From: Escherichia phage kaaroe
Length of the DNA stretch: 64,000 bases
Sequence record: MN850574.1
Strand: one strand, 5' to 3'
Shown here: piece after piece, positions 5,101 to 63,384 of the stretch
Numbering within the stretch: position 1 is the first letter of the stretch
Layout of the letters: every line of letters begins with the position of its first letter
Program-made: the position numbers and the translations under genes
Notes under the pieces: model-generated
Databases searched by the model: none
What the model was told of the DNA's origin: nothing
What the model saw: the letters and a program-made list of their open reading frames with translations, nothing else

Positions 5101-5276
5101 CCCAGGTTTACCCAGCTTAACTCATCGACGGGGATGATCTCCCCGTCTCGTGTTCTGGTTTCGGCTAACTCCACAAAATAAAAGAAGTTTTCGCCTACGT
5201 CATCCCATGTGATATACGCCTGATTAGCAGACAATTTTTCTATTGTCAAGCTAGTTACACTAGGCGCTTTAATCAT
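2190..5276 (-). CDS. 7: baseplate wedge protein gp7
   Basis: 1028 aa (T4 gp7 about 1030 aa); synteny between gp6 and gp8; overlapping start/stop with neighbours. Confidence 0.85.
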   Translation of the reverse strand: MIKAPSVTSLTIEKLSANQAYITWDDVGENFFYFVELAETRTRDGEIIPVDELSWVNLGYTAEQNWFEDKNLFPEYYYKFRVAVAAEGFEQSKWVETEEFQTFKTNAYNFSMMREFNLANEFIKEKFTYDNREYVKFNTDLIQASLMKEDFVFSPEYANMTNISNYIVVDENFHEIQDHIEKVCTDINRTMLAEMNGVLYLFERFQPIVKVSNDKGQSWKAYKAFNDRVGNPVSRTCVYQSKTTTYVLGYDRIFYGRQASDTRWSADDVRFSDDTITFAKVGDENDLGFDVEVFGVFSRLTGDTTKYAEAMACSDDYLWVGAKDVIRRIRLKNTPVDTVQGSPTFGEKIFDPDVIRVTGNDKAVIQKMDVIDGKLLVFVTGEVKQRYQDPTKPENVVPSDDAGVYLIGSDGLSFQRVFGNTPQEREYIQHGFSNMSTNGDEVFISHYNHHFESILPDPETAEKYELGEAVKYSQEPTYLTDKKIHQTTFRASYDDLRIWELGPQAYYNEADYTWMRRNGVRVWITNDNRPLVVYPEVIYTQEVDTSGILDQNRVNREVYDKGTVTCYLNNVKFEGFKQYASGVMFHKNTGEIIGFYQFNYRVRDQVGVYWKPTNVAFVAELQNQVREVPWVPVHYDREQDPDLRPLLNKMTPDSFLLENENFRKFSEYYLQFLSDGSGTYYNKLKNLIKNKYPREKDAYEYLWSEMNKRNIYADKNKRDAVVRFFESRKSDFYSTKGVEASYKFLFKLLYNEDVEIEVESQAGLEYDIVVSSTNIDEDIVGRTIYTPTGRANVTYLEREYEGGLLRWRVTIHNLIGRFEEGQVIKSEKTAFEGMILVGVRGKELLSSSIDYINRSRSQYTMKIKSALPVSRYANDVMRFVHPVGFGFIGVTLLTMFINSGLSMKHTETIIQSLKNYKFDSGLPSVYPDRVADLDVDGNIKKDPLTGKALYLTSPLIGEEFPVPPEYDQENSELFHGLKASERRFAMSPLFDQSAVTFSMFRELVDKRLKDNIGNPRDPKNPTQRKING

Positions 5277-14760: not shown

Positions 14761-14789
14761 TTGACAACATGAAACGGGGGTAGTAAGAT
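14761..14789 (+). promoter_or_regulatory. early promoter with embedded inverted repeat (PeSL-like)
   Basis: TTGACA 14761-14766, -10 TAAGAT 14784-14789; IR GGGGGTAGTAAGATACCCC spanning the spacer and -10. Confidence 0.6.
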
Positions 14790-34270: not shown

Positions 34271-35082
34271 TGAAGAAAGCATTAGGTTTAATTCCCTATA
34301 CTGGCAATAAGGAAAAGTTATTGCCGGGTGTTAGTAAGTATTTCCCTAAGCACTATAACCGCTTTGTTGATGCCTTTTGTGGCGGCTTGAGCGTGTCTCT
34401 GTACGTAGAAGGGGATGTGCTGGCTAATGACTATGATCACCGCTTAATTGAAGCGTACAAAGCGATTGACGAGTGTCCTGATCCGGTTTCTACGATCAAG
34501 CGGATTATTGCCGAGAATGATTTGTCTCGTGATGATAAAGATGCTTACATGGCATTCCGTAAGAAGTATAATGAGAATCCAGATCCGCTATCTCTGTTTG
34601 TTCTGATTCAGCACAGTTTTAGCAACATTAACCGTCATAACAGGAAGGGCGAATTTAATGCTAATTTTGGTCGCCGGACTTTTAACGAAAACGCGGTAGA
34701 GCGTGTCCTGAATTTTAAGGAAGAAAACAAAGACGGTCGAATCAGTTTTACGTCTGGTCGTTATGACGAGATCGAGATCTTGCCAGGTGATTTCGTTTAT
34801 TTGGACCCGCCGTACCTTATCACTTCTGCGGAATATAATAAGTTCTGGAGTGACGAGGAAGAGATTAAATTCTATCAGTGGGTAGAATCTATTATGGCGC
34901 GTGGTTTTCAGTTTGGTATAAGTAATGTCACGCATCATAAGGGAAAGGCAAATGATCATCTTCTTGACTTTATCAAGCGGAATGATTTAAACTGCGTCTT
35001 GTTGAATAAGACCTATTGCCTAGATCGTTCAGGTGGCAAGTCTTCTGATACGCAAGAAGTTTATGTAACTAACGTAGATTGA
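34270..35082 (+). CDS. dam: DNA adenine methyltransferase Dam
   Basis: 270 aa; FVDAFCGGLSVS (motif I) and DPPY (motif IV); collinear similarity to remembered T4 Dam. Confidence 0.85.
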   Translation: MKKALGLIPYTGNKEKLLPGVSKYFPKHYNRFVDAFCGGLSVSLYVEGDVLANDYDHRLIEAYKAIDECPDPVSTIKRIIAENDLSRDDKDAYMAFRKKYNENPDPLSLFVLIQHSFSNINRHNRKGEFNANFGRRTFNENAVERVLNFKEENKDGRISFTSGRYDEIEILPGDFVYLDPPYLITSAEYNKFWSDEEEIKFYQWVESIMARGFQFGISNVTHHKGKANDHLLDFIKRNDLNCVLLNKTYCLDRSGGKSSDTQEVYVTNVD

Positions 35083-35090
35083 GGTATAAC

Positions 35091-35372
35091 ATGGTAGAAA
35101 TTTTTGGTTTTGAAGGTTACAACTGTAAGTATTGCCAGAATGCAAAGCGCCTTTGTGAAGCGCGTAAGATCCCTTACATCTACATTCCGGTTAATGATGG
35201 TGTGGACGAAAACGGTCGCCCGGTAAAGATTGATTCTATCATTGCCGATATTCAGGATCGCGCAGGGGTAGAAGTTATTGCCACCATGCCGCAGATTTTC
35301 TATGATGGTGATTATATCGGTGGCTTTGATGAGTTCCGATCCTTTGTAGTCAAAAACAAGATTAATGGTTAA
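35091..35372 (+). CDS. nrdC: phage thioredoxin/glutaredoxin NrdC-like
   Basis: CKYC redox motif, TMPQIFYDGDYIGGFDEF like T4 NrdC; ATG at 35091 (track begins TTG 35079). Confidence 0.75.
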   Translation: MVEIFGFEGYNCKYCQNAKRLCEARKIPYIYIPVNDGVDENGRPVKIDSIIADIQDRAGVEVIATMPQIFYDGDYIGGFDEFRSFVVKNKING

Positions 35373-35396
35373 ATACCTTCTTTGGAGGGTGAATTT

Positions 35397-35870
35397 ATGT
35401 TACTGACTGCTAAGAGTGCTAAAGAGTACAAACAAGAACTATTCGAAAAACAGGGGGGCATTTGCCCCCTTTGTCAATTGCCACTTTTTGAGGATATGAG
35501 CAAAAACCATCTTGACCACGACCACGATCTAGATGGGAAAGGGCAAGGCCGCGTAAGGGGATTGCTTCATTCGTGTTGCAACCGCCTAGAAGGATCGTTG
35601 ACCGGAGACTTTAAACGGTTTGGTGTTGGTGCTTTAGGTGCTGATTTCGTTGTTTGGGCTACAAACTATGTTAATTACATCAAAGGAGACTACACCAACA
35701 ATCATTTACATCCTCAATATGCTGTTGATAAAGTAAAACGATTTTCACGCTTGACACGCGCGGAGATGGTTGATATTATGGACGCAGAAGGTTTCGATTA
35801 CTGCGACGCTGATACAAGAGAAGAGATCACGAAGAAGTATAAGAAACAATTTATACAAAGATTAAGATAG
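35397..35870 (+). CDS. 49: endonuclease VII (Holliday junction resolvase) gp49
   Basis: CPLCQ...HLDHDHDLDG...RGLLHSCCN matches T4 EndoVII zinc/His-Me motifs; ATG at 35397. Confidence 0.85.
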   Translation: MLLTAKSAKEYKQELFEKQGGICPLCQLPLFEDMSKNHLDHDHDLDGKGQGRVRGLLHSCCNRLEGSLTGDFKRFGVGALGADFVVWATNYVNYIKGDYTNNHLHPQYAVDKVKRFSRLTRAEMVDIMDAEGFDYCDADTREEITKKYKKQFIQRLR

Positions 35871-35873
35871 TAG

Positions 35874-35902
35874 TTGACAATAAGAAATGGGAGTAGTAAA
35901 AT
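35874..35902 (+). promoter_or_regulatory. early promoter with embedded inverted repeat (PeSL-like)
   Basis: TTGACA 35874-35879, -10 TAAAAT 35897-35902, IR GGGAGTAGTAAAATACTCCC. Confidence 0.65.
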
Positions 35903-35933
35903 ACTCCCATCTAATCAAGAAGGAGAATCAACA

Positions 35934-36206
35934 ATGCGTAAGATGTTTAAATCCGGTGTTGCCTATGTTTTTAAATCTGAGCAAGCACATAAAGACTTCT
36001 TAGATGATGAATACGAGGGGGTGAAAGATACCTACGAAGTCATCAAGAATGGGTTTACTGTTCTTAAAGTGTCACCTGTTGGTTATGTAAGTGAAATCTC
36101 GGTTGATGGGAAAACATACACCGCTAAAGACTTTGATCCGCGTTGGGAATTTATGCTGCTTCCGTGTGAGCGCATTCTGTTCCGTGCTGTTCAATTAGTG
36201 AAATGA
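35934..36206 (+). CDS. GFxVLKV-family protein, paralog 1 (90 aa)
   Basis: NGFTVLKVSPVGYVSEISVDGKTYTAKDF module shared with next three genes. Confidence 0.55.
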   Translation: MRKMFKSGVAYVFKSEQAHKDFLDDEYEGVKDTYEVIKNGFTVLKVSPVGYVSEISVDGKTYTAKDFDPRWEFMLLPCERILFRAVQLVK

Positions 36207-36220
36207 TAGAGGATTATATT

Positions 36221-36787
36221 ATGGTACAGAAAACGTATAAATTGTATCCGGCTAAGTCTTCAAATGATGCTGTTTTTGAACGAGGTCGTTATTACACTTT
36301 CCGTAATGCTGAGTCCGCAGAGGAATTTGTTAAACGCTACCCACAACATAACAAGTTCCTGTATGGTGTGCTTCACAGGGGCTTTAAAGTTCTTACGGTT
36401 AATGTTATGGGTAAAGTGTATTTGGTAGAAACTCATGATTATGAGGGTGCATCAATCATGATTGATGCAAGCGAGCGCAAATACTTTAAACGCATCACTA
36501 AAAAGCAGTTTGAAGAAATGAAACCAGTTAAGAAAGAAGAATCTCTGGAAGATCTGATTAACTTGTTTGGTAAAGTTCGCTCTATCTCCTTTGCGATTGA
36601 AGATGACATTACCGACAATAAAATCTTTATCAAGAACGCGGAAGACCTGAAAGAGTTCCTTATTGAAAATAGATCTCGGCTGGAAACCTTTCTTGAAAGT
36701 GAAATTATTCGACATGATACCTACGCTAAATTCAGCGCCGATAAAGTAGCTGAACTGAAAGAGATCCAAAAGTCATTTAACGCTTGA
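36221..36787 (+). CDS. GFxVLKV-family protein, paralog 2 (188 aa)
   Basis: RGFKVLTVNV...ERKYFKRITKKQFEEM...LKEFLIEN. Confidence 0.55.
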   Translation: MVQKTYKLYPAKSSNDAVFERGRYYTFRNAESAEEFVKRYPQHNKFLYGVLHRGFKVLTVNVMGKVYLVETHDYEGASIMIDASERKYFKRITKKQFEEMKPVKKEESLEDLINLFGKVRSISFAIEDDITDNKIFIKNAEDLKEFLIENRSRLETFLESEIIRHDTYAKFSADKVAELKEIQKSFNA

Positions 36788-36812
36788 CATGATGAAACGG
36801 GAGTAGTAAGAT
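36784..36812 (+). promoter_or_regulatory. early promoter (PeSL-like); -35 overlaps stop codon of upstream gene
   Basis: TTGACA 36784-36789, -10 TAAGAT 36807-36812, IR GGGAGTAGTAAGATACTCCC. Confidence 0.65.
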
Positions 36813-36843
36813 ACTCCCATCTAAACAACGAGAGGATTATATT

Positions 36844-38022
36844 ATGGCTAAATTCTTTGAAGGTCATTACTATGCATTCCGTGAAGGCGGTAAAGATGAG
36901 TTTCTAGACTTTTCTCGCTATTCAATTATTCTGACCGATGCTTCGCGCCGTGGTCATATTCGGGTTGCTGAAATCGTAGAAAAGGGCTTTAAAGTATTAG
37001 AAAAAGATGACCACGGTCATGTTATTACTATTGAAGCTGGAGATGTAGTTTATTCCGCTGAGGATATCGTTTATTATTGGTCTACTATGATTATGCACAA
37101 TGAGCGCAAATACTTTAAACGTATCTCAAAAGAGGCATACGAAGCGATGAACAAGAAAGAGGATGCAATGCCGACTTACTTTGAAAAAGGTAAATGTTAT
37201 TCGTTTACCCCAGAAGGTTTGCAAGAATTTAAGCGATTCTGGGGAGAGCATGACCCAGAGCACAAAGAAGCCATGAAACTTGTTGATTTTGTCGAATATG
37301 GCTTTTTAGTTGAAGAAGAATTGCACGGATCAGCTACCATGATCACCGCGAAAGGTGAAACCGTCAAGGCGGACCGTTTTTGTGATCAATGGAATTGCTT
37401 GTTTGACGGTAGCGAATTTGAATACTTCGCGGAAATCACGAAACAACAATTTCATTCTATGCAAGCGGATGGTCAGAGATTTAAAGTAGGTGAACGCTAC
37501 AAACCAAATCAGCATAATTTGCCATATTGGTTTACCGCTGAAACTGTATCAAGTCATGTTGTTGAAATTGTTCAAAAGCTGGGACAAGGATTTAAGGTAA
37601 CTAAAGTAGATGATTATGGAAGTGTTGACGCGGTTGAAATTGATGGTGTAGAATATACACCGAAATCTTTCGGTCTTTGCTGGTATCACTTGATCAGCAA
37701 TGATGAACGTTATAACTTTGTTGAACTGCCATCTGAACCGGAAGAAGCACTAGAAGATCATGATCATCTGTCTGAACTGGTTAAGCTGTTTGGTGATCTG
37801 CCGGATGGTGTAGGCGTGGCGGTAATGGGTGAAGGTGCTGTTATCCGAAACCTGAAAGACTTTAAAAAGTTCTTGATTGACATGCTGCCTAAACTTGATG
37901 ATAATCTAGATACAGATATTCAGAATCGCAAAGAAATTGTTAAAGAGACTGAAAAAGAGATCGAAGAGATTCGAGCAATTCGCCAGAAGGTGAAAGCAGT
38001 AAAGAAAAAAGTTAGTGCTTGA
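36844..38022 (+). CDS. GFxVLKV-family protein, paralog 3 (392 aa, internally duplicated module)
   Basis: Two copies of GF(K/L)V...DG..Y module, NERKYFKRISK, LKDFKKFLIDM and Lys/Glu-rich C-terminus. Confidence 0.6.
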   Translation: MAKFFEGHYYAFREGGKDEFLDFSRYSIILTDASRRGHIRVAEIVEKGFKVLEKDDHGHVITIEAGDVVYSAEDIVYYWSTMIMHNERKYFKRISKEAYEAMNKKEDAMPTYFEKGKCYSFTPEGLQEFKRFWGEHDPEHKEAMKLVDFVEYGFLVEEELHGSATMITAKGETVKADRFCDQWNCLFDGSEFEYFAEITKQQFHSMQADGQRFKVGERYKPNQHNLPYWFTAETVSSHVVEIVQKLGQGFKVTKVDDYGSVDAVEIDGVEYTPKSFGLCWYHLISNDERYNFVELPSEPEEALEDHDHLSELVKLFGDLPDGVGVAVMGEGAVIRNLKDFKKFLIDMLPKLDDNLDTDIQNRKEIVKETEKEIEEIRAIRQKVKAVKKKVSA

Positions 38023-38046
38023 CATGCGAAGGGAGTATGCTATAAT
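38019..38046 (+). promoter_or_regulatory. early promoter (PeSL-like); -35 overlaps stop codon
   Basis: TTGACA 38019-38024, TATAAT 38041-38046, IR GGGAGTATGCTATAATACTCCC. Confidence 0.65.
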
Positions 38047-38076
38047 ACTCCCACTTAACAACGAGAGGATTATATT

Positions 38077-38571
38077 ATGTGGGTACAAGATGTTTGGTAT
38101 ACTGTAACTAAAGAAAACCTTGACGCATTCAGCGACCAATCTTGCGCTAATAGCTCAATTGCTGGTATACTTACTGATGTGTTTGGTGGTGTAGATAAAA
38201 TTCGTTTTAAAGTTGTTGTTAGTTCGCTGGGTCAGGTGAAAGATCTTTACACCGAAGATAAAGACCTTGATCTTGAACTTCGTCTTCGTATTGATAATGC
38301 AAGTCTAGGTTATTGGTTTGAAGATAACGAATATGAATACTTCACGCCAGCAATTAAAGTTTTTGCGACTAAACTGGAAGCTGTACTGAATCTCCGACCA
38401 ATTAATGTTGACGGATACATTATCAAAAATATTCAGGATTGGGAGTTGTATCTAGATCAGGTTATCCGAAATAGTAAGCAGGAAGCCGCTAATAAGAAGC
38501 GACAAGAGATTAAACAGCTTAAAGCTGAACTAGAAGCTAAAGAAAAAGAATTAGCAGAACTGGTAAAATAA
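38077..38571 (+). CDS. hypothetical protein with coiled-coil C-terminus (164 aa)
   Basis: ORF behind promoter; C-terminal KQLKAELEAKEKELAELVK. Confidence 0.55.
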   Translation: MWVQDVWYTVTKENLDAFSDQSCANSSIAGILTDVFGGVDKIRFKVVVSSLGQVKDLYTEDKDLDLELRLRIDNASLGYWFEDNEYEYFTPAIKVFATKLEAVLNLRPINVDGYIIKNIQDWELYLDQVIRNSKQEAANKKRQEIKQLKAELEAKEKELAELVK

Positions 38572-38615
38572 CTATCAACGAGCGGGAGAAATCCCGCTTT
38601 TTCATAGGTGATACA

Positions 38616-40478
38616 ATGGAAAAACTAATCAAAGACATTACAGAGATCGCAACGGGTAAAGAAAACGAAGTAAGCAAAGAGAACGCGAACAAAGACGCGC
38701 GAACATTCCCGACACGTCGAGATCTGATTGCTGGTGCTGTGTCTAAACAGATTGCTAAAACCGTGTTACCTGAGCACATCTATAAAGCGCATGTAGACGG
38801 TGACATTCATTATCATGATATGGATTATGCACCCGCTATGCCGTTTACTAACTGCTGTCTTGTTAATCTCAAAGACATGTTAGAGAATGGTTTTAAATTG
38901 GGTAGCGCACAAATCGAAAGTCCGAAATCAATCGGCGTTGCTTGTGCTGTAACCGCTCAAATTATCGCACAGGTGGCAAGTCATCAATATGGCGGGACCA
39001 CAATCGCAAACATCGATCAGGTGTTAGCACCGTATGTTGAGAAAACATATCATAAACACCTTGCTGATGCCGAAACCTACGGAATCAAAGCTGATACTCT
39101 CTATGCACAAGAGAAGACAGAAAAAGAAACTTTAGACGGGTATCAAGCGTTGGAATATGAAATCAACACTTTGTTCTCCACCAACGGTCAAACGCCTTTT
39201 GTGACTTTAACCTTTGGTATGGGTACTAGCTGGGAAGAAAAACTGATTCAGAAAGCGATCCTGAACGTTCGAACTAAAGGTTTAGGTAAAGATGGTATCA
39301 CTCCGGTGTTTCCTAAGCTGGTGATGTTCTTAGAAGAAGGATTAAACCTTAAACCGGAAGATCCGAACTACGACATTAAGCAACTTGCATTGGAATGTTC
39401 TAGTAAGCGTCTTTACCCTGATTATATCTCTGCGAAGAATAACCGTAGTATCACCGGATCTAGTGTTCCGGTTAGCCCGATGGGTTGTCGTAGCTTCCTG
39501 GGTGTGTGGCATAATGAGAAAGGCGAAGAAGTATTAGACGGACGTAATAACTTGGGTGTTGTGACCCTGAATCTTCCGCGTATTGCCCTTATTGCCGCGC
39601 GTCGTGCTGGTAAAGCGTCTGTAATGCGCAGAATTGAGCTATTCGAACAAGAGCTAGCCAATCGTATGCCTATTTGCTTTGATGCGCTCATGAGTCGCGT
39701 AGACGCTTTAAAAGGGGCTAAAGCCAATGTTGCTCCGGTGCTGTATACCGAAGGTGCGTTTTTCCGTATTCATCAAAACGATGAAATTTTGGAAGTGTTG
39801 AAAGATGGTCGCGCTAGTATCTCTCTTGGATATATTGGTTTACATGAGGTATTGAGCGTCCTGTTTGGTGTTCATCCGTTTGATTCGGAAGATGCGCAGC
39901 GATACGGTAAACATATTCTTAAGATCTTGCGTCATTATACTGAAAAATGGAAGGACGAAACCGGACTTGGGTTTAGTCTTTACGGTACTCCAGCCGAGAG
40001 CCTTTGCTATCGATTTAATCGACTGGACCGAGAGCAATTTGGTATTGTTAAGGGTGCTACCGATAAAGACTGGTACACCAACTCATTCCACCTTGACGTA
40101 GACCGGAAAGTCACTCCATTTGAGAAAATTGACTTTGAGAAAGATTATCACTGGCTGGCGTCCGGTGGCATGATCTCTTATGTTGAGTTCCCAGACATGA
40201 AAAACAACCTGAAAGGTCTTGAAACTGTAGTAGACTATGCAATGGATAAATTGCACTACTTCGGTGTTAATACTCCTTCTGATGTATGTCATGTATGCGG
40301 ATCTACTAAGGAAATGAGAGCGACCGAGTCTGGTTTTGTTTGTCCTGATTGCGGTAATGACAATCTGGACAAGATGAATGTTATCCGTCGCGTTAGTGGA
40401 TATCTTGGATCTGTTGATCTGCGTCCATTCAACCACGGGAAACACTCCGAGATGGTAAACCGCGTTAAGCACATGTAA
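38616..40478 (+). CDS. nrdD: anaerobic ribonucleoside-triphosphate reductase NrdD
   Basis: 620 aa; C-terminal glycyl-radical motif RVSGYLGS and CxxC zinc ribbon; uninterrupted (no intron). Confidence 0.9.
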   Translation: MEKLIKDITEIATGKENEVSKENANKDARTFPTRRDLIAGAVSKQIAKTVLPEHIYKAHVDGDIHYHDMDYAPAMPFTNCCLVNLKDMLENGFKLGSAQIESPKSIGVACAVTAQIIAQVASHQYGGTTIANIDQVLAPYVEKTYHKHLADAETYGIKADTLYAQEKTEKETLDGYQALEYEINTLFSTNGQTPFVTLTFGMGTSWEEKLIQKAILNVRTKGLGKDGITPVFPKLVMFLEEGLNLKPEDPNYDIKQLALECSSKRLYPDYISAKNNRSITGSSVPVSPMGCRSFLGVWHNEKGEEVLDGRNNLGVVTLNLPRIALIAARRAGKASVMRRIELFEQELANRMPICFDALMSRVDALKGAKANVAPVLYTEGAFFRIHQNDEILEVLKDGRASISLGYIGLHEVLSVLFGVHPFDSEDAQRYGKHILKILRHYTEKWKDETGLGFSLYGTPAESLCYRFNRLDREQFGIVKGATDKDWYTNSFHLDVDRKVTPFEKIDFEKDYHWLASGGMISYVEFPDMKNNLKGLETVVDYAMDKLHYFGVNTPSDVCHVCGSTKEMRATESGFVCPDCGNDNLDKMNVIRRVSGYLGSVDLRPFNHGKHSEMVNRVKHM

Positions 40479-40484
40479 ATTTCA

Positions 40485-40515
40485 GCCGATCCGAAAGGGT
40501 CGGCTTTTTCGTTTT
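40485..40515 (+). terminator. intrinsic terminator (GAAA tetraloop, conserved family)
   Basis: gccgatcc-gaaa-gggtcggc hairpin then TTTTTCGTTTT. Confidence 0.7.
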
Positions 40516-40521
40516 GGGGTG

Positions 40522-40549
40522 TTGACAACATGATTAGCTAATGTATAAT
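40522..40549 (+). promoter_or_regulatory. early promoter TTGACA-16-TATAAT
   Basis: -35 40522-40527, -10 40544-40549, leader GCTCACATCGAAAACAACGAGAGG. Confidence 0.65.
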
Positions 40550-40578
40550 GCTCACATCGAAAACAACGAGAGGACAAC

Positions 40579-41118
40579 ATGATGATGTTTTGTGTACTGA
40601 ACAAAGAAGTTAAACTTCGTAAACTGGAAATTGGCGATGGTGTTGTTGTTAAAATGCACGCTAGCACATTGACTAGTTTTAATTTAAAGGAAAGTTTTTT
40701 TATTAGAGGAACGGTGGTTAATATCTGCTGGAGTAAAGGCGAAGGAATCCGTAGCTTTTGCGTAATTGACGATGATAATAACCTGTATGTGATTCGCTAT
40801 CATAATAATTCTGTATTGGTCTATACCGACAATTCACGAGAATTGTATACTCTTGAATTTGTTAAGCGTACTGATTGCGATCGATTTGTTCGTGCTTATG
40901 AAGAAGATGGCTGTTTTGCGACTGAAACAGAAACAAATGAATATGTTCCTATGGAAGTAGGAGCAGAAATTAAACACAAGATCACGGATCGTATTTTTAA
41001 GGTTGTTGCGGTTGCTCATACTCAATTTGTAGCGCAAGCGCCGGATGAAGAATTTATTATCTACAATATTGGTAATGCAAGTTCTCATTTTCATAATGTA
41101 CTATATCGCGACCTTTGA
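40579..41118 (+). CDS. hypothetical protein (179 aa)
   Basis: ORF behind promoter. Confidence 0.55.
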   Translation: MMMFCVLNKEVKLRKLEIGDGVVVKMHASTLTSFNLKESFFIRGTVVNICWSKGEGIRSFCVIDDDNNLYVIRYHNNSVLVYTDNSRELYTLEFVKRTDCDRFVRAYEEDGCFATETETNEYVPMEVGAEIKHKITDRIFKVVAVAHTQFVAQAPDEEFIIYNIGNASSHFHNVLYRDL

Positions 41119-41135
41119 TAATGTGTGAGGTGAAT

Positions 41136-41663
41136 ATGAAATCATTAAACCGTAAGCGTAAAGCACAACGACACAAAGAACGAGCTAAAAAGATTGCTAT
41201 TGAACTGGTTGAGCGTGAGGATAGCTATTTGTCTACGGGTCGTTTGTATACATTCCATGCATTGATTGATGGTAAGCCAGTGTTGCATAATCATGATTGC
41301 TTAGCACTGTTTCACGAGATCGAACCAATCCATCGTGAATGGGATGACAACAAAGCAAAAGGACAATATTTCCTTACTTGTTCGTGTGGTCATGCTGGAT
41401 GTGCTGGATATTGGGAACCTGTTACGATCCGTGAGAAAAATGATACTATTCAATGGGTCGCCCGTACCCGCGATGGTTATGATAAAGGTGCTGATGGTAC
41501 TGGCGATAACGTAGTTTACTTTAATCGTGATTGGTATTATATGGCGCGATGTATGATCCTGTTTTATCTTGACTCGATGCCGTATGAATATTTCAGTTTC
41601 CAGAATGGGACCGAACTGACAGGGAAGGAATGGTCTGAATACATTCGAAAAAATTTAAAATAA
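41136..41663 (+). CDS. hypothetical protein (175 aa)
   Basis: ATG at 41136 with GAGGTG RBS (track ORF begins 41115). Confidence 0.5.
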   Translation: MKSLNRKRKAQRHKERAKKIAIELVEREDSYLSTGRLYTFHALIDGKPVLHNHDCLALFHEIEPIHREWDDNKAKGQYFLTCSCGHAGCAGYWEPVTIREKNDTIQWVARTRDGYDKGADGTGDNVVYFNRDWYYMARCMILFYLDSMPYEYFSFQNGTELTGKEWSEYIRKNLK

Positions 41664-41667
41664 ATGC

Positions 41668-41696
41668 TTGACGGGGATCGCGAGATCCCCTATACT
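41668..41696 (+). promoter_or_regulatory. early promoter with embedded inverted repeat (PeSL-like, -35 TTGACG)
   Basis: TTGACG 41668-41673, -10 TATACT 41691-41696, IR GGGGATCGCGAGATCCCC. Confidence 0.6.
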
Positions 41697-41738
41697 ATAT
41701 TCATCAAGACGAGATACAACTTTACAGGAGAATCAAAT

Positions 41739-41891
41739 ATGTGGACTTTACTGATTTGGGAAACTGAAAACGCACAAGTAGAAATCCGTGAATACGAATA
41801 CCTAAGCCCAGCTTATCTATTAGCATCTCGCGGTGGTTACTATAAAGCGCAGATTGTAAACGAGTTCGGGGTAATTGAATATGAGTTCTGA
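41739..41891 (+). CDS. small protein (50 aa)
   Basis: ATG with AGGAGAATCAAAT RBS behind promoter. Confidence 0.4.
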   Translation: MWTLLIWETENAQVEIREYEYLSPAYLLASRGGYYKAQIVNEFGVIEYEF

Positions 41892-42384
41892 TACATACGG
41901 CAAACTACGCTATGCCGATATTAAAGATTGTGATATGGTTAACGGTGAGGGAGTGAGAGTCTCCCTTTACGTTACCGGATGTTCACACGCATGTGATGGT
42001 TGCTTTAATGCTAGCCTACTCAATCCTAAGAACGGGGAACCATTCACCGATGATACAATGGGATTGATTCTGGATCTGCTTAGACCTGATTTTATTCAGG
42101 GGCTAACATTCTTAGGTGGCGATCCACTGTATAAACGCAATTTAAAGGGTGTACAGCGGATCATCGATGAAGTAAAATCATGGATGCCAAATAAAGATAT
42201 TTGGCTATGGTCCGGTTATACCCTTGACCAATTGAATGATGAGCAAAGAAAAATTGTAGAATCAGTTGACATGTTCATCGATGGGCGTTATATTAAAGAT
42301 ATGCCAACGAAGAAGCCGTGGCGGGGATCTGACAATCAAGTACAATACAAGATTGTTAATAGTATTCCAGTGAAAATTATTTGA
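41881..42384 (+). CDS. nrdG: anaerobic ribonucleotide reductase activating enzyme NrdG (radical SAM)
   Basis: CSHACDGC (CxxxCxxC) radical-SAM cluster motif; similar to T4 NrdG. Confidence 0.85.
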   Translation: MSSDTYGKLRYADIKDCDMVNGEGVRVSLYVTGCSHACDGCFNASLLNPKNGEPFTDDTMGLILDLLRPDFIQGLTFLGGDPLYKRNLKGVQRIIDEVKSWMPNKDIWLWSGYTLDQLNDEQRKIVESVDMFIDGRYIKDMPTKKPWRGSDNQVQYKIVNSIPVKII

Positions 42385-42394
42385 GGTGATTATT

Positions 42395-42922
42395 ATGGAA
42401 TGGGAAGTTGGTAAAACTTACAAGATTGAATGCGAAGCGTCGAAAGCCGAACTGACTAAATTTTCGTCGTCTATTAACAGATGTATTGTTGACTTGTTGG
42501 CTGGTCGCCCGTTTAGGGTAGAAGACCTTGACGATGATGGTGATGTTAGAGAAATTACTATTATTGGTAGTGATTTCGACTCTATGACGTTAAAAGAATC
42601 CCCTATTGGTTGTTCTGGTGTGTGGTTTTGGTCGGGTGAGCGTCGTTTCTTTACCGAAGTTACTATTGAACCTAAGATTCCAGATTCAGAAGAAAAAGAA
42701 GAAGACCTAACTTTAGAACGCCTGGGTCTGCTTATGGAAGCCTACGACATTCAGTTGATCGATAAGATGGGGTTACATAATAGCATTGCCAAAATTACTA
42801 CCCTAGAAGGTATTAAGAGCGTACTGGATGGTATGCCTAGCCGGATCGGTGCTATCAGAGAATACAAACAAACGCGCGACCGTATGATCCAATTAGAATC
42901 ACGTATCAAAAATGAGAGATGA
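42395..42922 (+). CDS. WExGKTY-family protein, paralog 1
   Basis: N-terminus MEWEVGKTYKIE; coiled-coil C-terminus; first of four tandem paralogs. Confidence 0.55.
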   Translation: MEWEVGKTYKIECEASKAELTKFSSSINRCIVDLLAGRPFRVEDLDDDGDVREITIIGSDFDSMTLKESPIGCSGVWFWSGERRFFTEVTIEPKIPDSEEKEEDLTLERLGLLMEAYDIQLIDKMGLHNSIAKITTLEGIKSVLDGMPSRIGAIREYKQTRDRMIQLESRIKNER

Positions 42923-42926
42923 TATT

Positions 42927-43391
42927 ATGAAATGGGAAGCTGGTAAGACCTATGCGTGGAAAGATGTAAAAGATGCAAACCAATTTTTTAAATGGTATGA
43001 TGTTGATTATTTGAAATATCTGCGATTACCGTTTAAAGTTGCGTCGGTTGATGCGAAAAAAGGATACGTGCGGTCTGTTTATCTTCATGATGGAACTTAT
43101 ATGAGTTCAACCGATGTAGGTCTATCTTGTTGGTTTCTGGATCATGACCGTAGCAGATTTGAAGAAATTATTATTCCAGAAGAATCTAAATTAATTGACC
43201 TTCTCAAATTGGCGATGGATAATTATAAAATTCGCTTTGAATGCAAATCACATGCGGCTATCGGTGCTAACGCCTTGCGTCATATCTCCAGTTTTGAAGA
43301 GTTGAAAGATTTTCTTGACAAAATGCCGGAAAGAGTGCAAGCTATACAGGAAGCTGAGAAAGCATTAAACGAACTTGATAAAATCGGTTAA
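42927..43391 (+). CDS. WExGKTY-family protein, paralog 2
   Basis: MKWEAGKTYAWKD; C-terminal ALNELDKIG. Confidence 0.55.
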   Translation: MKWEAGKTYAWKDVKDANQFFKWYDVDYLKYLRLPFKVASVDAKKGYVRSVYLHDGTYMSSTDVGLSCWFLDHDRSRFEEIIIPEESKLIDLLKLAMDNYKIRFECKSHAAIGANALRHISSFEELKDFLDKMPERVQAIQEAEKALNELDKIG

Positions 43392-43403
43392 GGGGAATAT
43401 ATT

Positions 43404-44228
43404 ATGAAATGGGAAATTGGTAAAACTTACACTTGGAAAGATGAAAACGCGAAAACTGAGTTTATTACTAACGGAGAAGGTGTTCTTTCTCCACTTAACA
43501 GCGATATCAGTGCAGCTATTGGTGACAAGCCATTTACCATCATCGAGATCGAGGGTAACGGTTGGATTGATGCAATAGAGCTAGACGGTGTTTATCATAC
43601 GGCGAAAACTGCTACAGGAAAAGACATTTGGACTGCAACATATTTCTTTAGTCCATTCGATAGAAAATTCTTTCGTGAAGTTGAAGAAGTTCCCCAGAAA
43701 TGGGAAGTTGGTAAAACTTATACTTGGAAAGATGCGAATGCTATGACCGACTTCTGTCATTATGCTGAAAACGTATCTAACCTTAATTATGTTATTGCAC
43801 GAGCAATAAATTATAGACCTTTTACTGTTAAAAATGTTAGTCCATGTGGGCAAGTTAATGTAATTGAAATTGATGGTAAAGACCATACTCTAATGAGTGC
43901 AACCGAAGATAGCGACCATAAAGGAACTAGCTGGTTTATTGATTCTGATAGAAAATTCTTTCGTGAAGTAGAAGAATTGGAAGTTATAACCACTGATTCT
44001 AAGATCGTTGGACAGTTGAAACGTCTGTTTAGTAGTCGTTATGGCCTGACAATGGTTAAATTTAGCGAAGCAAATGAAGGTAAAACCTTTGAACGTTTCG
44101 ATGATTTCATCGCAGCACTTGACAAGATGGACGAAATAATGCAAGATCGCCAGAAGATTAAAGACCTTCAAGAAGACATTAAACGTCGTGAAGTTGAATT
44201 TTTGATTGGTAAAGAGCGAGGTTGGTAA
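43404..44228 (+). CDS. WExGKTY-family protein, paralog 3 (internally duplicated)
   Basis: MKWEIGKTYTWKD and second copy QKWEVGKTYTWKD, each followed by RKFFREVEE. Confidence 0.55.
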   Translation: MKWEIGKTYTWKDENAKTEFITNGEGVLSPLNSDISAAIGDKPFTIIEIEGNGWIDAIELDGVYHTAKTATGKDIWTATYFFSPFDRKFFREVEEVPQKWEVGKTYTWKDANAMTDFCHYAENVSNLNYVIARAINYRPFTVKNVSPCGQVNVIEIDGKDHTLMSATEDSDHKGTSWFIDSDRKFFREVEELEVITTDSKIVGQLKRLFSSRYGLTMVKFSEANEGKTFERFDDFIAALDKMDEIMQDRQKIKDLQEDIKRREVEFLIGKERGW

Positions 44229-44229
44229 T

Positions 44230-44706
44230 ATGTTTGTTGTTGGCATGACCTATCAGTGGAAAAACGAACAAGCGCGTAAAGCCTTTGCAACCAGTGATGC
44301 GAATCGTGTGATCTCCGAGTTTATCGGGGACCGTCAGTTTAAAGTCTTAGCTATTGATTCATCTACTATACCTGAATATGTTTCTGTGATTGAAATCGAT
44401 GGTAAGGCTTACCAGTGTCCAGACAATGAAAAGGTTTATCTTTATGCTTGTAATTGGTTTTCACCTACCGAAGATCAATATTTTAAAGTAGTATCAGCAG
44501 AACTATCATCCGAAGCAATGATGCAACAATTCTTCAATAACTACGAAGTTTCTGTGCGTCGCTATGGCGAAGAAGAAGTGTTTAAAATCGATGATTACAA
44601 TCAGTTTAAACGAGTATTCGCCACTAAGTTGCAGCGTGACTTTGAACGTGACCAACGGATCAAGGAACTGGAAGAAGAACTAGAAAGATTAAAGGCTGAG
44701 AAATGA
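44230..44706 (+). CDS. WExGKTY-family protein, paralog 4
   Basis: MFVVGMTYQWKNEQARKAF; C-terminal LEEELERLKAEK. Confidence 0.55.
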   Translation: MFVVGMTYQWKNEQARKAFATSDANRVISEFIGDRQFKVLAIDSSTIPEYVSVIEIDGKAYQCPDNEKVYLYACNWFSPTEDQYFKVVSAELSSEAMMQQFFNNYEVSVRRYGEEEVFKIDDYNQFKRVFATKLQRDFERDQRIKELEEELERLKAEK

Positions 44707-44972
44707 TCGAGATATACGGTATACCGAAAGAGGCTTATCATTGTTATGGTTGTATTAGTGCAATGAAGCTACTGGATGATCTGGGTATTCCGTATACACT
44801 TAAACCAGTATTCAAGCAGGTCGGGGTTGACATTATTCCCGACCGTGATATGATTGAAGAACTGGCGGGGAGGCTGAACTCAAAGAGCCTCCGGTTTGTA
44901 TACCCCCAGATATTCATTGACAACGAGCACATTGGAGGCTATAAAGAACTGAGGGCGATTTATGATTATTGA
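44703..44972 (+). CDS. glutaredoxin-like protein (NrdH-like)
   Basis: CYGC redox motif near N-terminus; ...IFIDNEHIGGY... glutaredoxin-fold signature. Confidence 0.65.
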   Translation: MIEIYGIPKEAYHCYGCISAMKLLDDLGIPYTLKPVFKQVGVDIIPDRDMIEELAGRLNSKSLRFVYPQIFIDNEHIGGYKELRAIYDY

Positions 44973-45120
44973 GAATTTAGTTTCGGTATTCATTATTGCT
45001 TTATTTGCTATAATGGCTTTACCGTTGAAGAAGTGTAAACACTGTAACGGAACAGGATTGCGTGGTGATGGGTGTTGCGCTCATTGTCATGGATCTGGTA
45101 AAGTAAGTATCATTAAGTAA
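44962..45120 (+). CDS. membrane-anchored miniprotein with DnaJ-type zinc finger (52 aa)
   Basis: N-terminal TM helix then CKHCNGTG and CAHCHGSG (two CxxCxGxG repeats); below track cutoff. Confidence 0.45.
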   Translation: MIIENLVSVFIIALFAIMALPLKKCKHCNGTGLRGDGCCAHCHGSGKVSIIK

Positions 45121-45141
45121 TTCTTGAGTGAGGAATATATT

Positions 45142-45429
45142 ATGTTAGTACACAATGCAATCGCACACATGGTTTATTCTCGATTTGGGCGCATGGAAGA
45201 AATCAATATTACCGACGCAGATTTAGATCTGATGCAAGTCGAAGGCCAGACATATCTGAAAAATAACGGCGTGAATATCGGTAAAGCGCGTGTGCGTGAA
45301 TTGTTGGTTGAATATATTCTCTCTGAATTTGGCATTAGTGCTTTCGGTGTGAAAGAGATTGCACCTAAGCGCGAAATTTCTGATAAAATGATCAAGAAAT
45401 GCCAGAAAGAACGACGTAAGGGTTTCTAA
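45142..45429 (+). CDS. hypothetical protein (95 aa)
   Basis: ATG with GAGGAATATATTATG RBS (track ORF begins TTG 45124). Confidence 0.5.
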   Translation: MLVHNAIAHMVYSRFGRMEEINITDADLDLMQVEGQTYLKNNGVNIGKARVRELLVEYILSEFGISAFGVKEIAPKREISDKMIKKCQKERRKGF

Positions 45430-46898
45430 TGAAGATTGAAACATTAATCGCATTGCCAGCGGCGGGGAAAACTGATGCTATACTTTCCCACGTCCTAGAG
45501 ACAAAAGAAAAAGCGGTTATTGCTTCGCCATCTCGTGTTTTAAGTGAACAATCTTACAATAAGTTTAAAAGAATGGGCGGTCGTGCTGTCTTGATTGATA
45601 GCACAAGACTAAGAAGCCTTAAGACAGTGCAAGCGTCGATAATGCAATCAGTTAAAGATGGTGCTGATGTGATATTCATTACACATACAGCGTTATCTAA
45701 TATGGAACGTTCAAAAATGTTTGGTGATTATGCTCTTTACATTGATGAAGTTCCTCAACTGGTTGAATTTAATGAGTATCCGTTTAAGTCTAATCTTGAA
45801 CTTATCACGAAGCATTGCGAACCAATCGCCGACGAATCGGAATGCCTACAGAACTTAGTTCTAAAAGACTCTGAGAAGGCCGCTATCAAAGAAAAGATAG
45901 AAAGTGCGAAGGATGGTACTGATATGATCGATTCTTCTCTTAGAGGGCTTTATGAGGCGTTATTAGAGAAGAAAATCAACGTTATGGTAAAACATAACGA
46001 AGGACACCGGAAGAATGGGTCGAAAATTGTTTTCTTGAACGATAACAAACACGGTACGTGGGGAGACTTTAAAAAGGTTACGATAGCATGTGCAAATCTC
46101 TTTGATACATATAGTGGGAAGTATCTACGATACTATGCAAATTGCGATTTTGTTCCGAGTGCGCTAGAATCCAGACTATATTTCAAAGAGTATAAAAATA
46201 CAGATAGAGTTAATATCATCCTTATGACGGACTCTGAACGATGGTCGCGTCACCAGTCAGAAACAAACAATACCTTTGAACGTCTTGTTGATATGGTTAA
46301 AAATGAATGTGGCGATGACTTCATTTATACCGTGAATCGGGACCGTGAAGCGTGTACAAATGGTATTGGTGAGCGGATACCTTACGGGTCTTATGGTCTT
46401 AACTCTTACATTCATCATAAAAATGTTGCTGTGATGTTCAGCTTTAACCCTCAACGATGGGAGATTGATATTTTAAAAGGTCTTGCTAATAGTTGTGATC
46501 TCCCGACAAACGAGTTTTTGAAAGCGCGTCATGTGTCTGATTATCTGGAACCAGCATTTCAATTATGTTTGCGTTGTAACCTGAGAGACAACGAGAGCAA
46601 GGAGAATGTTAATCTATATGTTCCTGATTGGGCGTTGGTGGATTATCTAAAAACGTTTCTGCCTAATGCCAATGTAATAACAGATCGAATGATTCCGCTA
46701 GAATGTGGTGAACGTAAAGGGCGAAAATCATTTAAAAAGATGTTCGACTTTAACGAGCAAGAGAATGCAAGATTTAACGGATTTAAGTACCGCATGAAGA
46801 AAAAAGGAAAAACTCTTGATCCGTCTGACGGCGAATCTGTAGAGATGGTTAGAGTGTGGATAACTAAGCAAAGAAAGTATAATGGTAATGGGGAATAG
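45429..46898 (+). CDS. P-loop NTPase, helicase-like (function unknown)
   Basis: 489 aa; Walker A ALPAAGKTD at residues 8-16, Walker B ALYIDEV; occupies the position of alpha-gt in T4. Confidence 0.6.
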   Translation: MKIETLIALPAAGKTDAILSHVLETKEKAVIASPSRVLSEQSYNKFKRMGGRAVLIDSTRLRSLKTVQASIMQSVKDGADVIFITHTALSNMERSKMFGDYALYIDEVPQLVEFNEYPFKSNLELITKHCEPIADESECLQNLVLKDSEKAAIKEKIESAKDGTDMIDSSLRGLYEALLEKKINVMVKHNEGHRKNGSKIVFLNDNKHGTWGDFKKVTIACANLFDTYSGKYLRYYANCDFVPSALESRLYFKEYKNTDRVNIILMTDSERWSRHQSETNNTFERLVDMVKNECGDDFIYTVNRDREACTNGIGERIPYGSYGLNSYIHHKNVAVMFSFNPQRWEIDILKGLANSCDLPTNEFLKARHVSDYLEPAFQLCLRCNLRDNESKENVNLYVPDWALVDYLKTFLPNANVITDRMIPLECGERKGRKSFKKMFDFNEQENARFNGFKYRMKKKGKTLDPSDGESVEMVRVWITKQRKYNGNGE

Positions 46899-53221: not shown

Positions 53222-53908
53222 ATGAAACTGACTAAAGAAACCATTGCTACCCTGAAAAACTTTTCCGCTATTAACCCAGGTATCATCCTGAAAAAAGGAA
53301 ACGTCCTGATCACCAAAAACATGACAAACGTTGTATATGGTGAAGCGACTCTGAATCAAGAACTGGAACACGAAATTGGGATCTATGATCTTAACTCTTT
53401 CTTGGGTATTCTGAATCTGGTAGGCGATGAAGCAGATATTACGGTTGACGACCGCACTGGTAACATTCGTGTGTCTAATGATCGTCTGAAAATTAATTAC
53501 CCTGGTGCTAGTGCTGCTGCTATCGTATCACCGAAAGGCCGAGTTACTCCACCTGCAAGCGATGTAGATTACGAACTGAGCAACGACGATCTGAAACAGC
53601 TTATGAAAATGAGCAATCAGCTTAAAGTGGATCGCCTTGAATTTCTTCCGATTGATGGTCGTCTGATGATCAAAGGTTGGGAAGAGATTGACAAAAATAA
53701 TCCTAATGAGATGTTTTGTCTTGATATGGGCGAATATACCGGAACCGCAGACTTCCATTTCTTTATTCGTAAAGATAACATGAAACTGGTTGCTACTGAC
53801 TTCGGCGATTACAAACTGAGCTTCACTCGCCGTAAGGCTGTATGGCTGGCAAGTGAAACCGTATCTTATATGATCGCGTGTGACCTTGACTCCAGCTACA
53901 CCGACTAA
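53222..53908 (+). CDS. 45: sliding clamp gp45
   Basis: 228 aa; MKLTKETIATLKNF..., IYDLNSFLGILNLV match remembered T4 gp45. Confidence 0.9.
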   Translation: MKLTKETIATLKNFSAINPGIILKKGNVLITKNMTNVVYGEATLNQELEHEIGIYDLNSFLGILNLVGDEADITVDDRTGNIRVSNDRLKINYPGASAAAIVSPKGRVTPPASDVDYELSNDDLKQLMKMSNQLKVDRLEFLPIDGRLMIKGWEEIDKNNPNEMFCLDMGEYTGTADFHFFIRKDNMKLVATDFGDYKLSFTRRKAVWLASETVSYMIACDLDSSYTD

Positions 53909-53914
53909 TATAAT
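53886..53914 (+). promoter_or_regulatory. sigma70-like promoter TTGACT-17-TATAAT for gene 44 (within 3' end of gene 45)
   Basis: TTGACT 53886-53891, TATAAT 53909-53914. Confidence 0.55.
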
Positions 53915-53920
53915 GTTTGT

Positions 53921-53941
53921 GGGGAGTATAAAATACTCCCC
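53921..53941 (+). promoter_or_regulatory. perfect 9-bp stem-loop in gene 44 leader
   Basis: GGGGAGTAT-AAA-ATACTCCCC immediately downstream of -10. Confidence 0.5.
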
Positions 53942-61816: not shown

Positions 61817-62452
61817 ATGATCGCTAATGCTTTACCGCCAAAATGGATCGTAAGTCGCTTTTATACTCTCAAGGAAGGTAACGCACCTGATGGTCGTCCG
61901 ATCCGAGATCTGTTTCTGGAGATGACTACAGCCGAAGCACAGTTTTATAATGATCTGACAGACGATAAGCCATTTCTCGTAAATTCGGTGGACCTTGATG
62001 GCAATGTCACATCAATCATCACACATGGTGGGGGAGTGAAAAATATTACTTCTCTGCGTGATCACGGTTGGGAAATTGCTTGTGTATTTCCTGCGGATGT
62101 ACGCGGATTCTTTGATGAGGTATCTGATATTAAAGTAAATGCACTGGAACCATATGACGAGATCCCACCACTGAAAGAAGAAAAAGAGTTGACACCGGAA
62201 GATGTAGATAGTACACTACACCCCGACCTATTTAAGAAGATTAGCGGTTTATGGACTGTTACCCTGTATCCAACCGCATTAGGTCTAGAATTGGGTATGC
62301 CAACTTATTCTGATATTGATAATTGGAATAAGAGCATTGATAAAGATGTTGAAAAACAGCGAAATAATGCTAAAATGCAACTTAAAGAGAAACGCAAAGA
62401 TCTTGAACGACAACTGAAAGAAACAAAACGTTTGCTTTCTACATTCGCTTGA
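61817..62452 (+). CDS. hypothetical protein (211 aa)
   Basis: ORF with GGAG RBS; coiled-coil C-terminus. Confidence 0.55.
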   Translation: MIANALPPKWIVSRFYTLKEGNAPDGRPIRDLFLEMTTAEAQFYNDLTDDKPFLVNSVDLDGNVTSIITHGGGVKNITSLRDHGWEIACVFPADVRGFFDEVSDIKVNALEPYDEIPPLKEEKELTPEDVDSTLHPDLFKKISGLWTVTLYPTALGLELGMPTYSDIDNWNKSIDKDVEKQRNNAKMQLKEKRKDLERQLKETKRLLSTFA

Positions 62453-63040: not shown

Positions 63041-63184
63041 ATGTTTATCGTTGGCTTGCTGTCCGCTATTATCGGTGTTGTTGTTTTCGGATTATCTGGA
63101 CACAAAACAAAAACAGAAAAGTTATCCGAGATCACAATGTATGTTGGTGTAGTTCTCATTCTGTTGTCGGTGGCGCTTAAATGA
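63041..63184 (+). CDS. small membrane protein (47 aa)
   Basis: Hydrophobic ORF; its stop overlaps next start (ATGA). Confidence 0.35.
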   Translation: MFIVGLLSAIIGVVVFGLSGHKTKTEKLSEITMYVGVVLILLSVALK

Positions 63185-63384
63185 TTACGATGAAATGTCT
63201 TAAAAGCACATATGCACTTTTTGAAGCCGGAAAAGAATATGAATTTACAGAACTTGATTCGGTAGGCCGTTTTCGTGTATTCTCTTACACATCGCCAGAT
63301 GGTAGTGTCTACAAATTTGGCTTAGATGAAAACGGAGAGAATGAAAATGAAAGTGTAGGAACTTTCATGAAATTTGAGCTATAA
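63181..63384 (+). CDS. hypothetical protein (67 aa)
   Basis: ORF with ATGA overlap. Confidence 0.45.
   Translation: MITMKCLKSTYALFEAGKEYEFTELDSVGRFRVFSYTSPDGSVYKFGLDENGENENESVGTFMKFEL

Follow-up and report, generated by a model that had tools for sequence, protein, structure and literature searches.

The 64,000-nucleotide stretch of Escherichia phage kaaroe DNA analysed here (sequence record MN850574.1; hereafter the window) carries at 35934–38571 four consecutive plus-strand genes, designated g1 to g4, fronted by early promoters of the PeSL type. The results indicate that this array likely arose as the GoF/Frd.2 (MotB.1) family of phage T4 expanded in one lineage, the RB49-like phages of the genus Krischvirus, and that its products are likely early modulators of mRNA fate or of host factors. 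An earlier note, made from the sequence alone, had described a tandem paralog array with PeSL-like promoters. That core reading is correct, and what it describes is real and statistically well supported, apart from two corrections concerning the number of modules in g3 and the number of promoters; the identity with the T4 family had not been recognised.

The first gene, g1 (35934–36206; 90 residues; RB49p060 in phage RB49), encodes one GoF-like N-terminal barrel module without a C-terminal domain. The product of g2 (36221–36787; 188 residues; RB49p059) consists of a barrel at residues ~18–95, a small α/β C-terminal domain and a long C-terminal helix, that of g3 (36844–38022; 392 residues; RB49p058) of three tandem barrel modules followed by the C-terminal domain and long helix, and that of g4 (38077–38571; 164 residues; RB49p057) of a divergent barrel module, the C-terminal domain and a coiled-coil tail. 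In a database of the four sequences BLASTP aligned g2 with g3 (E = 9e-9), g1 with g3 (7e-7) and g1 with g2 (1e-4), and Smith-Waterman scores for the same pairs were above those of all 1000 shuffles with Gumbel p values of 5e-5 to 5e-8. Formal alignment, which the note had named as the test of similarity, was therefore significant for every pair among g1, g2 and g3, and their paralogy through shared modules stands. The quoted motifs were also found, namely GF.VL, ERKYFKRI(T/S)K in g2 and g3, and LK(D/E)F..FLI.

The fourth gene, said to continue the array, was not significantly similar to g1 or g2 by BLASTP or shuffled Smith-Waterman, and a hidden Markov model (HMM) built from the array's own five modules failed to detect it (E = 5.6); pairwise tests were insufficient and broader profiles were required to bear out the claim. 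A profile built from 39 distant non-Krischvirus relatives (the remote-only profile) detected g4 with an E value of 1.8e-10 over residues 7–109 and g1 with 2.8e-18. When the profile of g4 orthologues was compared by hhalign with a family profile lacking g4, the match had a probability of 97.8% (E = 1.3e-12; 148 columns) and spanned both the barrel and the C-terminal part. The profile phrog_3710 was matched by both g4 and T4 GoF. In addition, a 31-nucleotide stretch of 84% identity is common to the second module of g3 (FDGSEFEYFA) and g4 (FEDNEYEYFT), in register at the E-x-E-Y-F motif. Based on the remote profile, hhalign, the common phrog_3710 and the in-register repeat, g4 is judged from its sequence to be a distant member of the array, detectable by profiles. 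The pairwise identities of just 20–36% in the array, together with the failure of g4 in pairwise tests against g1 and g2, could suggest a chance or compositional artefact among unrelated ORFans. That explanation is contradicted by the shuffle tests, the independent profiles, the curated PHROG library, hhalign, the matching predicted folds and the in-register nucleotide repeats; its probability is negligible and it may be called already refuted. Comparison with five relatives showed g1–g4 and their paralogs to be under purifying selection, with ratios of nonsynonymous to synonymous substitution (dN/dS) of 0.04–0.46, indicating that the open reading frames (ORFs) of the array are real genes.

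The 392-residue product of g3 had been credited with two copies of the first module. Three were found, at residues 1–103, 108–207 and 209–305 (36844–37152, 37165–37464 and 37468–37758), with the C-terminal domain and long helix encoded at 37759–38019. The g2 protein aligned by BLASTP to three regions of g3 (residues 2–124, 113–207 and 246–359), the remote-only profile detected three domains (E = 8e-15, 1.4e-12 and 3.7e-15), and phrog_622 matched g3 in three stretches (E = 9e-20). The AlphaFold2 model of g3, with a mean predicted local distance difference test (pLDDT) score of 78, showed the pattern β1-α-α-β2-β3-β4-β5 three times followed by a C-terminal domain. The agreement among the g2 matches, the profile domains and the structural repeats establishes that g3 has three N-terminal modules, the divergent middle copy being the one missed.

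A single barrel was predicted for g2 (pLDDT 87.8), with strands at residues 24–27, 55–60, 66–70, 77–81 and 89–92 and a helix at 151–187, compared with three barrels for g3. Both models show the arrangement looked for in the family, a bent five-stranded antiparallel N-terminal sheet from which a linker leads to a variable C-terminal domain. The nearest solved structures were FeoA-type barrels of SH3 topology, as reported for GoF (Kim et al., PMC12152347). The models suggest that the unit of the family is an SH3-like small β-barrel of ~90 residues present in one to three copies per protein. In all members but g1 the barrel or barrels are predicted to be followed by a small α/β domain and a long, probably dimerising helix; for GoF itself none of the AlphaFold3 multimers was confident (Kim et al., PMC12152347). 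The Krischvirus barrels differ from FeoA-type, Sm and Hfq barrels in having two helices inserted between strands 1 and 2. No sequence similarity to any of these was found, neither Sm nor Hfq was among the top 60 structural matches, and no match was obtained to an Sm, LSm or Hfq structure, in which an N-terminal helix precedes five strands.

The family comprising GoF as well as Frd.2 and MotB.1 of T4 was described in 2025 as three proteins with a "phage LSm-like fold" (Kim et al., PMC12152347), the only paper retrieved in a literature search on the family. An HMM of ten modules from the window matched T4 GoF over the whole module (E = 5e-10) and Frd.2 (E = 5e-4), and the remote-only profile matched Frd.2 with an E value of 5e-10. 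Both T4 proteins belong to phrog_622 (GoF, 5e-38; Frd.2, 4e-46), which was also matched by g1 (1.9e-7), g2, g3 and three further window proteins described below (b1, b3 and b4); g2 additionally matched phrog_8944. When 1.84 billion representative proteins were searched exhaustively by HMMER with the window module profile, 77 matches were returned, among them the GoF orthologue P0110 (E = 1.6e-4), most of the others being short proteins or proteins of two to three modules with the same layout. Matches to bacterial proteins of 708–4074 residues were judged spurious; they covered the module profile partially, mostly in several repeated stretches, their N-termini look adhesin-type, and they had no BLAST similarity to the window family. 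Searches by tblastn with g2 and by word index with g3 retrieved Krischvirus orthologues only, and a word-indexed profile search found nothing outside Krischvirus; among the sequence searches other genera were reached by exhaustive HMMER and PHROGs only. Pfam gave nothing above threshold for any of the nine family proteins of the window, including PF03197 (FRD2), for which T4 Frd.2 scores 133 bits. Foldseek against the BFVD viral models matched a GoF-annotated protein of phage VR7 and dozens of uncharacterised proteins from T4-like phages of Serratia, Aeromonas, Acinetobacter, Cronobacter, Proteus and others, some of which are 225–317 residues long with room for two or three barrels. The RefSeq name of RB49p058 and RB49p059 is "goF mRNA metabolism modulator", and RB49p058 originally carried the annotation "frd.2".

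T4 GoF (ComC-α, 141 residues) has the same N-terminal module, known there as the LSm-like domain, in the full-length register F..G..Y.F...F...PF.V...D..G.V..I...F...E..(Y/F)F.EV. and the same build of barrel, acidic linker and small C-terminal domain. The early-promoter context, the restriction to T4-like phages and the mostly acidic proteins of the T4 family are likewise found in Krischvirus. The two lineages differ in scale, with nine genes and 13 barrels in Krischvirus versus three single-barrel genes reported in T4, and in architecture, since some Krischvirus members have two or three barrels and most a long C-terminal helix, unlike the T4 family. No Krischvirus member occupies the T4 goF, motB.1 or frd.2 map positions. 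The RB49 region 5128–5971, from a 39.2-like gene to dexA, is without the goF, cef, motB, motB.1 and motB.2 genes that T4 carries there. For T4 Frd.2 (PF03197) the homology is remote and confined to the N-terminal barrel; the C-terminal part and the genome position differ.

The array described in the note is real, but the family extends beyond it to 42395–44706 and 61817–62452. A second plus-strand cluster starts directly after nrdG and ends before nrdH, and comprises b1 (42395–42922; 175 residues), b2 (42927–43391; 154 residues), b3 (43404–44228; 274 residues, two modules) and b4 (44230–44706; 158 residues). The HMM from the array's five modules alone detected b3 (E = 2e-14) and b4 (E = 1e-5). 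By BLASTP, b2 aligned with g2 over 148 residues (2e-5), b3 with g1 (5e-7) and g3 (2e-6), and b4 with g1 (3e-6). Members of this cluster, which are named only hypothetical proteins in RB49 and Phi1 RefSeq, matched phrog_5347, phrog_622 and phrog_3710. The ninth member, called Dc2 in RB49 (61817–62452, plus strand; 211 residues), lies immediately 3' of the gene 41 helicase and was detected by the module HMM (E = 6e-6), by the remote-only profile (1.9e-8) and by a Foldseek match to the Dc2 model of phage ECD7. The adjacency of Dc2 to gene 41 is curious, as the phenotype of T4 GoF(D25Y) concerns gene 41 mRNA. The family total is thus nine genes with 13 barrels, and no further members were found on scanning the rest of RB49 (1–30 kb and 74–164 kb). 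A 67-residue ORF at 63181–63384 (..FEAGKEYEF..GRFRVFSYTSPDGSVYKF..) gave a weak, non-significant match to the start of the module profile (E = 0.03–0.2); it may be a truncated barrel, or the match may be fortuitous.

Exactly three copies of the pattern TTGACA-N-GGGAGTA-N-TACTCCC are present, at 35874, 36784 and 38019, with none expected by chance. PeSL1 (35874–35908, plus strand) has a -35 box TTGACA at 35874–35879, a 17-nucleotide spacer and a -10 box TAAAAT at 35897–35902, with the hairpin GGGAGTA..TACTCCC at 35889–35908 (-13.8 kcal/mol, z -5.0); it scored 11/12 in the promoter scan and is an annotated promoter in phage GEC-3S. PeSL2 (36784–36818, plus strand) has TTGACA and TAAGAT separated by 17 nucleotides and a hairpin at 36799–36818. 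PeSL3 (38019–38052, plus strand) has TTGACA and TATAAT separated by 16 nucleotides (12/12, with a TG element) and a hairpin at 38031–38052, and also carries a promoter annotation in GEC-3S. The three elements match 10–12 of the 12 sigma-70 consensus positions, and their hairpins (-12 to -14 kcal/mol, z -3.6 to -5) overlap the -10 box. The sequence properties of a PeSL are all present: -35 and -10 boxes 16–18 nucleotides apart, an overlapping stable stem-loop, and an intergenic location just 5' of a Shine-Dalgarno sequence and start codon. About 50 PeSLs occur per RB49 or phi1 genome, mainly in hyperplastic regions 5' of ORFans, and promoter and terminator activity has been demonstrated for others of these phages by lacZ fusions (Arbiol et al. 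2010, PMC2839356). In their sigma-70 promoter, stem-loop over the -10 box and site 5' of an ORFan Shine-Dalgarno sequence, the array's three PeSLs are ordinary members with no essential difference from those known (PMC2839356; Comeau et al. 2014, PMC4122927), although two embed the upstream stop codon in the -35 box. The TGA stops of g2 (36785–36787) and g3 (38020–38022) sit inside the TTGACA of the next PeSL, and both genes end ...GCT TGA CAT G.

According to the note each gene has its own PeSL. The elements at the three positions were confirmed, but three PeSLs serve four genes and it is g2 that has none. The stop of g1 and the start of g2 are separated by 14 nucleotides, g2 has a ribosome-binding site only, and no promoter was found between them. 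At the end of the array, before nrdD, lies a terminator-like hairpin (38580–38599, plus strand; GAGCGGGA-GAAA-TCCCGCTT followed by a T run; -13.9 kcal/mol, z -4.75), which the annotations of GEC-3S and G2248 likewise give as a terminator. The short promoterless gap, the PeSL positions and this hairpin predict three transcription units, in which PeSL1 would serve g1 and g2, PeSL2 g3, and PeSL3 g4 up to the terminator. Host sigma-70 RNA polymerase would read the three units immediately after infection, and the PeSL hairpins may insulate them from each other.

Further plus-strand cassettes of PeSL type are located at 14761, 22621, 16571, 17264, 28507, 31973, 32649, 41668 and 55913. Those at 14761 and 22621 differ from the PeSL at 36784 chiefly by a compensatory stem change from A-T to G-C (GGGGGTA..TACCCCC). 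A fourth GGGAGTA..TACTCCC hairpin at 53922–53940 has a promoter-like TTGACT...TATAAT upstream (53886–53914) that does not overlap it.

The note had also proposed cassette-wise duplication, and on this the evidence is mixed. A 16-nucleotide translation start region, AGAGGATTATATTATG, containing the ribosome-binding site is common to g2, g3 and g4, the 26 nucleotides 5' of the g3 and g4 starts are 96% identical, the cores of PeSL1 and PeSL2 are 88% identical, g2 and g3 have the same GCT-TGA ending with the stop within the next -35 box, and a recombinant PeSL junction in phage KFS-EC, described below, also favours the proposal. On the other hand, PeSLs are neither specific to the family nor required for its duplication. 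Unrelated genes at 14761 and 22621 have PeSLs of the same class (76–81% core identity) in front of them, and the core of PeSL3 is no closer to the other PeSLs of the array than to unrelated ones. Genes b1–b4 lie head to tail without a PeSL between them, and the three modules of g3 arose through intragenic duplication. Since PeSLs precede unrelated genes, and the second cluster and the g3 repeats were duplicated without them, PeSLs appear to delimit and mobilise units and are no signature of the family's duplication.

The comparison of copy number in related phages, also suggested in the note, was extended to 58 matching records, all of Krischvirus, a genus of RB49-like T4-type coliphages, and variation was found. 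The array has essentially the same length in 57 of the 58 genomes. In each of the 57 relatives with matches covering g3 and g4 these two genes keep the same length, and g1 and g2 are missing only from KFS-EC. This phage lacks exactly g1 and g2 and has a single PeSL, whose upstream half comes from PeSL1 and whose downstream half comes from PeSL2 (KFS-EC stretch 872–934), a chimeric junction indicating loss by recombination between PeSLs. Judged from the junction sequence, the event appears to be exactly the PeSL–PeSL exchange proposed by Arbiol et al. (2010, PMC2839356), and insertion or deletion of flanked cassettes by such recombination is a further property ascribed to PeSLs. KFS-EC also lacks b1, and its b2 opens with the first codons of b1 (MEWE.. 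then b2; KFS-EC stretch 6519–6983), a chimera at the 5' ends of b1 and b2 that accounts for the loss. In phage AV108, b3 has one module and 177 residues (AV108 stretch 8408–8941) versus the two-module form of 274 residues, having arisen at a 38-nucleotide repeat of 95% identity common to the 5' ends of both b3 modules. The metagenomic proteins P0009–P0012 are also single-module b3, and the matches of ELT4 and E26, about 270 bp shorter and known from match length alone, are consistent with a one-module b3. The two b3 modules (43404–43985) have end blocks of 38 nucleotides (95% identity) and 35 nucleotides (94%) enclosing middles of 52% amino acid identity, which suggests gene conversion or strong local constraint.

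In some relatives the synonymous divergence (dS) of g2, b1, b2 and b4 is 0.6–0.8, compared with 0.02–0.1 for the flanking core genes, a difference that argues for replacement by divergent alleles and against fast local mutation. The family appears to have grown by three routes, namely duplication of modules within a gene, tandem duplication of whole genes and the swapping of divergent alleles, and to shrink when PeSLs, or the conserved 5' ends of paralogs, recombine with each other. Expansion, allele swapping and variation in presence and absence would also be accounted for if the genes were a fast-diversifying host-range or counter-defence toolkit in which each paralog neutralises a different host factor. 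The mosaic alleles, the gain and loss of genes and modules among the 58 genomes, the location of the array in a PeSL-rich hyperplastic region and the dispensability of the T4 homologues in laboratory hosts agree with this explanation. We nevertheless think it unlikely, as dN/dS is well under 1, g3 and g4 are constant in all 57 covering relatives, g1 and g2 are absent from KFS-EC only, and no likeness to known anti-defence proteins turned up, although no search aimed at those was made.

We regard as established the homology, the fold, the anatomy of genes and promoters, the purifying selection and the changes in copy number; beyond these, the proteins may be expressed early, dimerise and have some RNA-related activity. 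T4 GoF is early, present at about 20,000 copies per cell and non-essential, and its suppressor allele D25Y lets the phage grow on rho mutants again and makes the gene 41 leader RNA more stable post-transcriptionally (PMC12152347). By homology to GoF and from the promoter context, the preferred interpretation is that the array proteins would be early factors, abundant and each dispensable by itself, that modulate the fate of phage or host mRNA, by affecting stability or read-through at Rho-sensitive sites, through binding either RNA or a host protein of RNA metabolism. Several points weigh against it. Wild-type GoF has no known function, and the reporter assay responded little to it or to MotB.1 (PMC12152347). 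The packing between the predicted domains of g3 is not confident (predicted TM score, pTM, 0.42), and the promoter and terminator roles of the array elements are themselves predictions. Most modules are acidic (isoelectric point, pI, 4.3–5.1) with only that of g2 basic (pI 9.6), which disfavours general RNA binding and makes protein binding a serious rival to direct RNA binding.

Accordingly, the barrels may possibly be SH3/Tudor-type protein–protein adaptors acting on host RNA polymerase, Rho, the degradosome or other host proteins, with indirect effects on RNA and with multivalent binding provided by tandem barrels and a dimerising helix. Besides the acidity of most modules, the selection of goF mutants on rho mutant hosts and the failure of wild-type GoF to stabilise RNA fit this explanation, which we consider credible but hold only tentatively since no partner is known and a GoF pull-down recovered essentially GoF alone.

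The position equivalent to D25 of GoF is aromatic in five of 12 aligned modules (g3a, g3b, b1, b2 and b3b, letters denoting the order of modules in a protein), and is an invariant phenylalanine in nine g3 and 33 b1 sequences. At the position equivalent to G84, five modules (g2, g3a, b1, b3a and b3b) have lysine or arginine. These residues are a lead for experiments and no evidence of activity. It is conceivable, although quite improbable, that such modules are natural gain-of-function-like variants of GoF that stabilise RNA by binding it directly, g3 dimers joined at the C-terminal helix forming a six-barrel Hfq-like platform and the phage possessing its own set of RNA chaperones with varied specificities.

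The array is flanked by nrdC and gene 49 (endonuclease VII) on one side and nrdD on the other. In total, eight of the nine family genes flank anaerobic ribonucleotide reductase and redoxin genes, and T4 frd.2 adjoins frd. Position near nrdC, nrdD, nrdG and nrdH, and that of T4 frd.2 beside frd-td-nrdA, could suggest accessories of nucleotide metabolism, either FeoA-like helpers for iron or Fe-S clusters or scaffolds for a dNTP-synthesising complex. This proposal appears very improbable. T4 goF and motB.1 are not close to nucleotide-metabolism genes, Dc2 follows gene 41, and GoF lacks the metal-binding histidines of related metal regulators (Kim et al., PMC12152347). Furthermore, nrdD is itself a plastic PeSL-associated locus (PMC2839356), so the nrd neighbourhood may merely reflect the hyperplastic region.

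Over 35300–38700 the window shares 99.9% identity with Escherichia phage vB_EcoM_PTE-Eco09 and 97.6% with RB49. A TTG-start ORF at 35874 starts within the promoter, and the ATG at 35934, preceded by a GGAG Shine-Dalgarno sequence and in agreement with the RB49 annotation, was preferred for g1. Minus-strand ORFs in the array region are short and contained within plus-strand genes, and no Rfam families or tRNAs were found in 35000–45500. The ORF of no known identity at 41136–41663, between nrdD and nrdG, has 56% identity in phage KMB43 with dS of about 1.2, compared with 97–100% for its neighbours, and is a further mosaic allele replacement in the region. Homing endonuclease genes are present between dam and nrdC in GEC-3S (GEC-3S stretch 535–1290) and within or next to nrdD in JSE; neither insertion is in the window.

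Overall, the locus is a richer example of the known GoF/Frd.2 family on known PeSL cassettes and no new kind of system; its novelty lies in how far the family has expanded, in the architecture of that expansion and in the routes of gain and loss that could be documented. GoF is an old unsolved early gene of T4 whose family came to light only in 2025, through three T4 proteins of a single domain each. The results indicate that the family can reach nine genes and 13 barrels in one genome and forms multi-barrel proteins, and that it turns over through simple recombination of two kinds, between PeSLs and between paralogs. Seven Krischvirus "hypothetical proteins" (g1, g4, b1–b4 and Dc2) can be annotated as GoF-like, and the natural variants at the two positions of the T4 goF suppressor mutations provide test proteins for the existing RNA-stability reporter assay.

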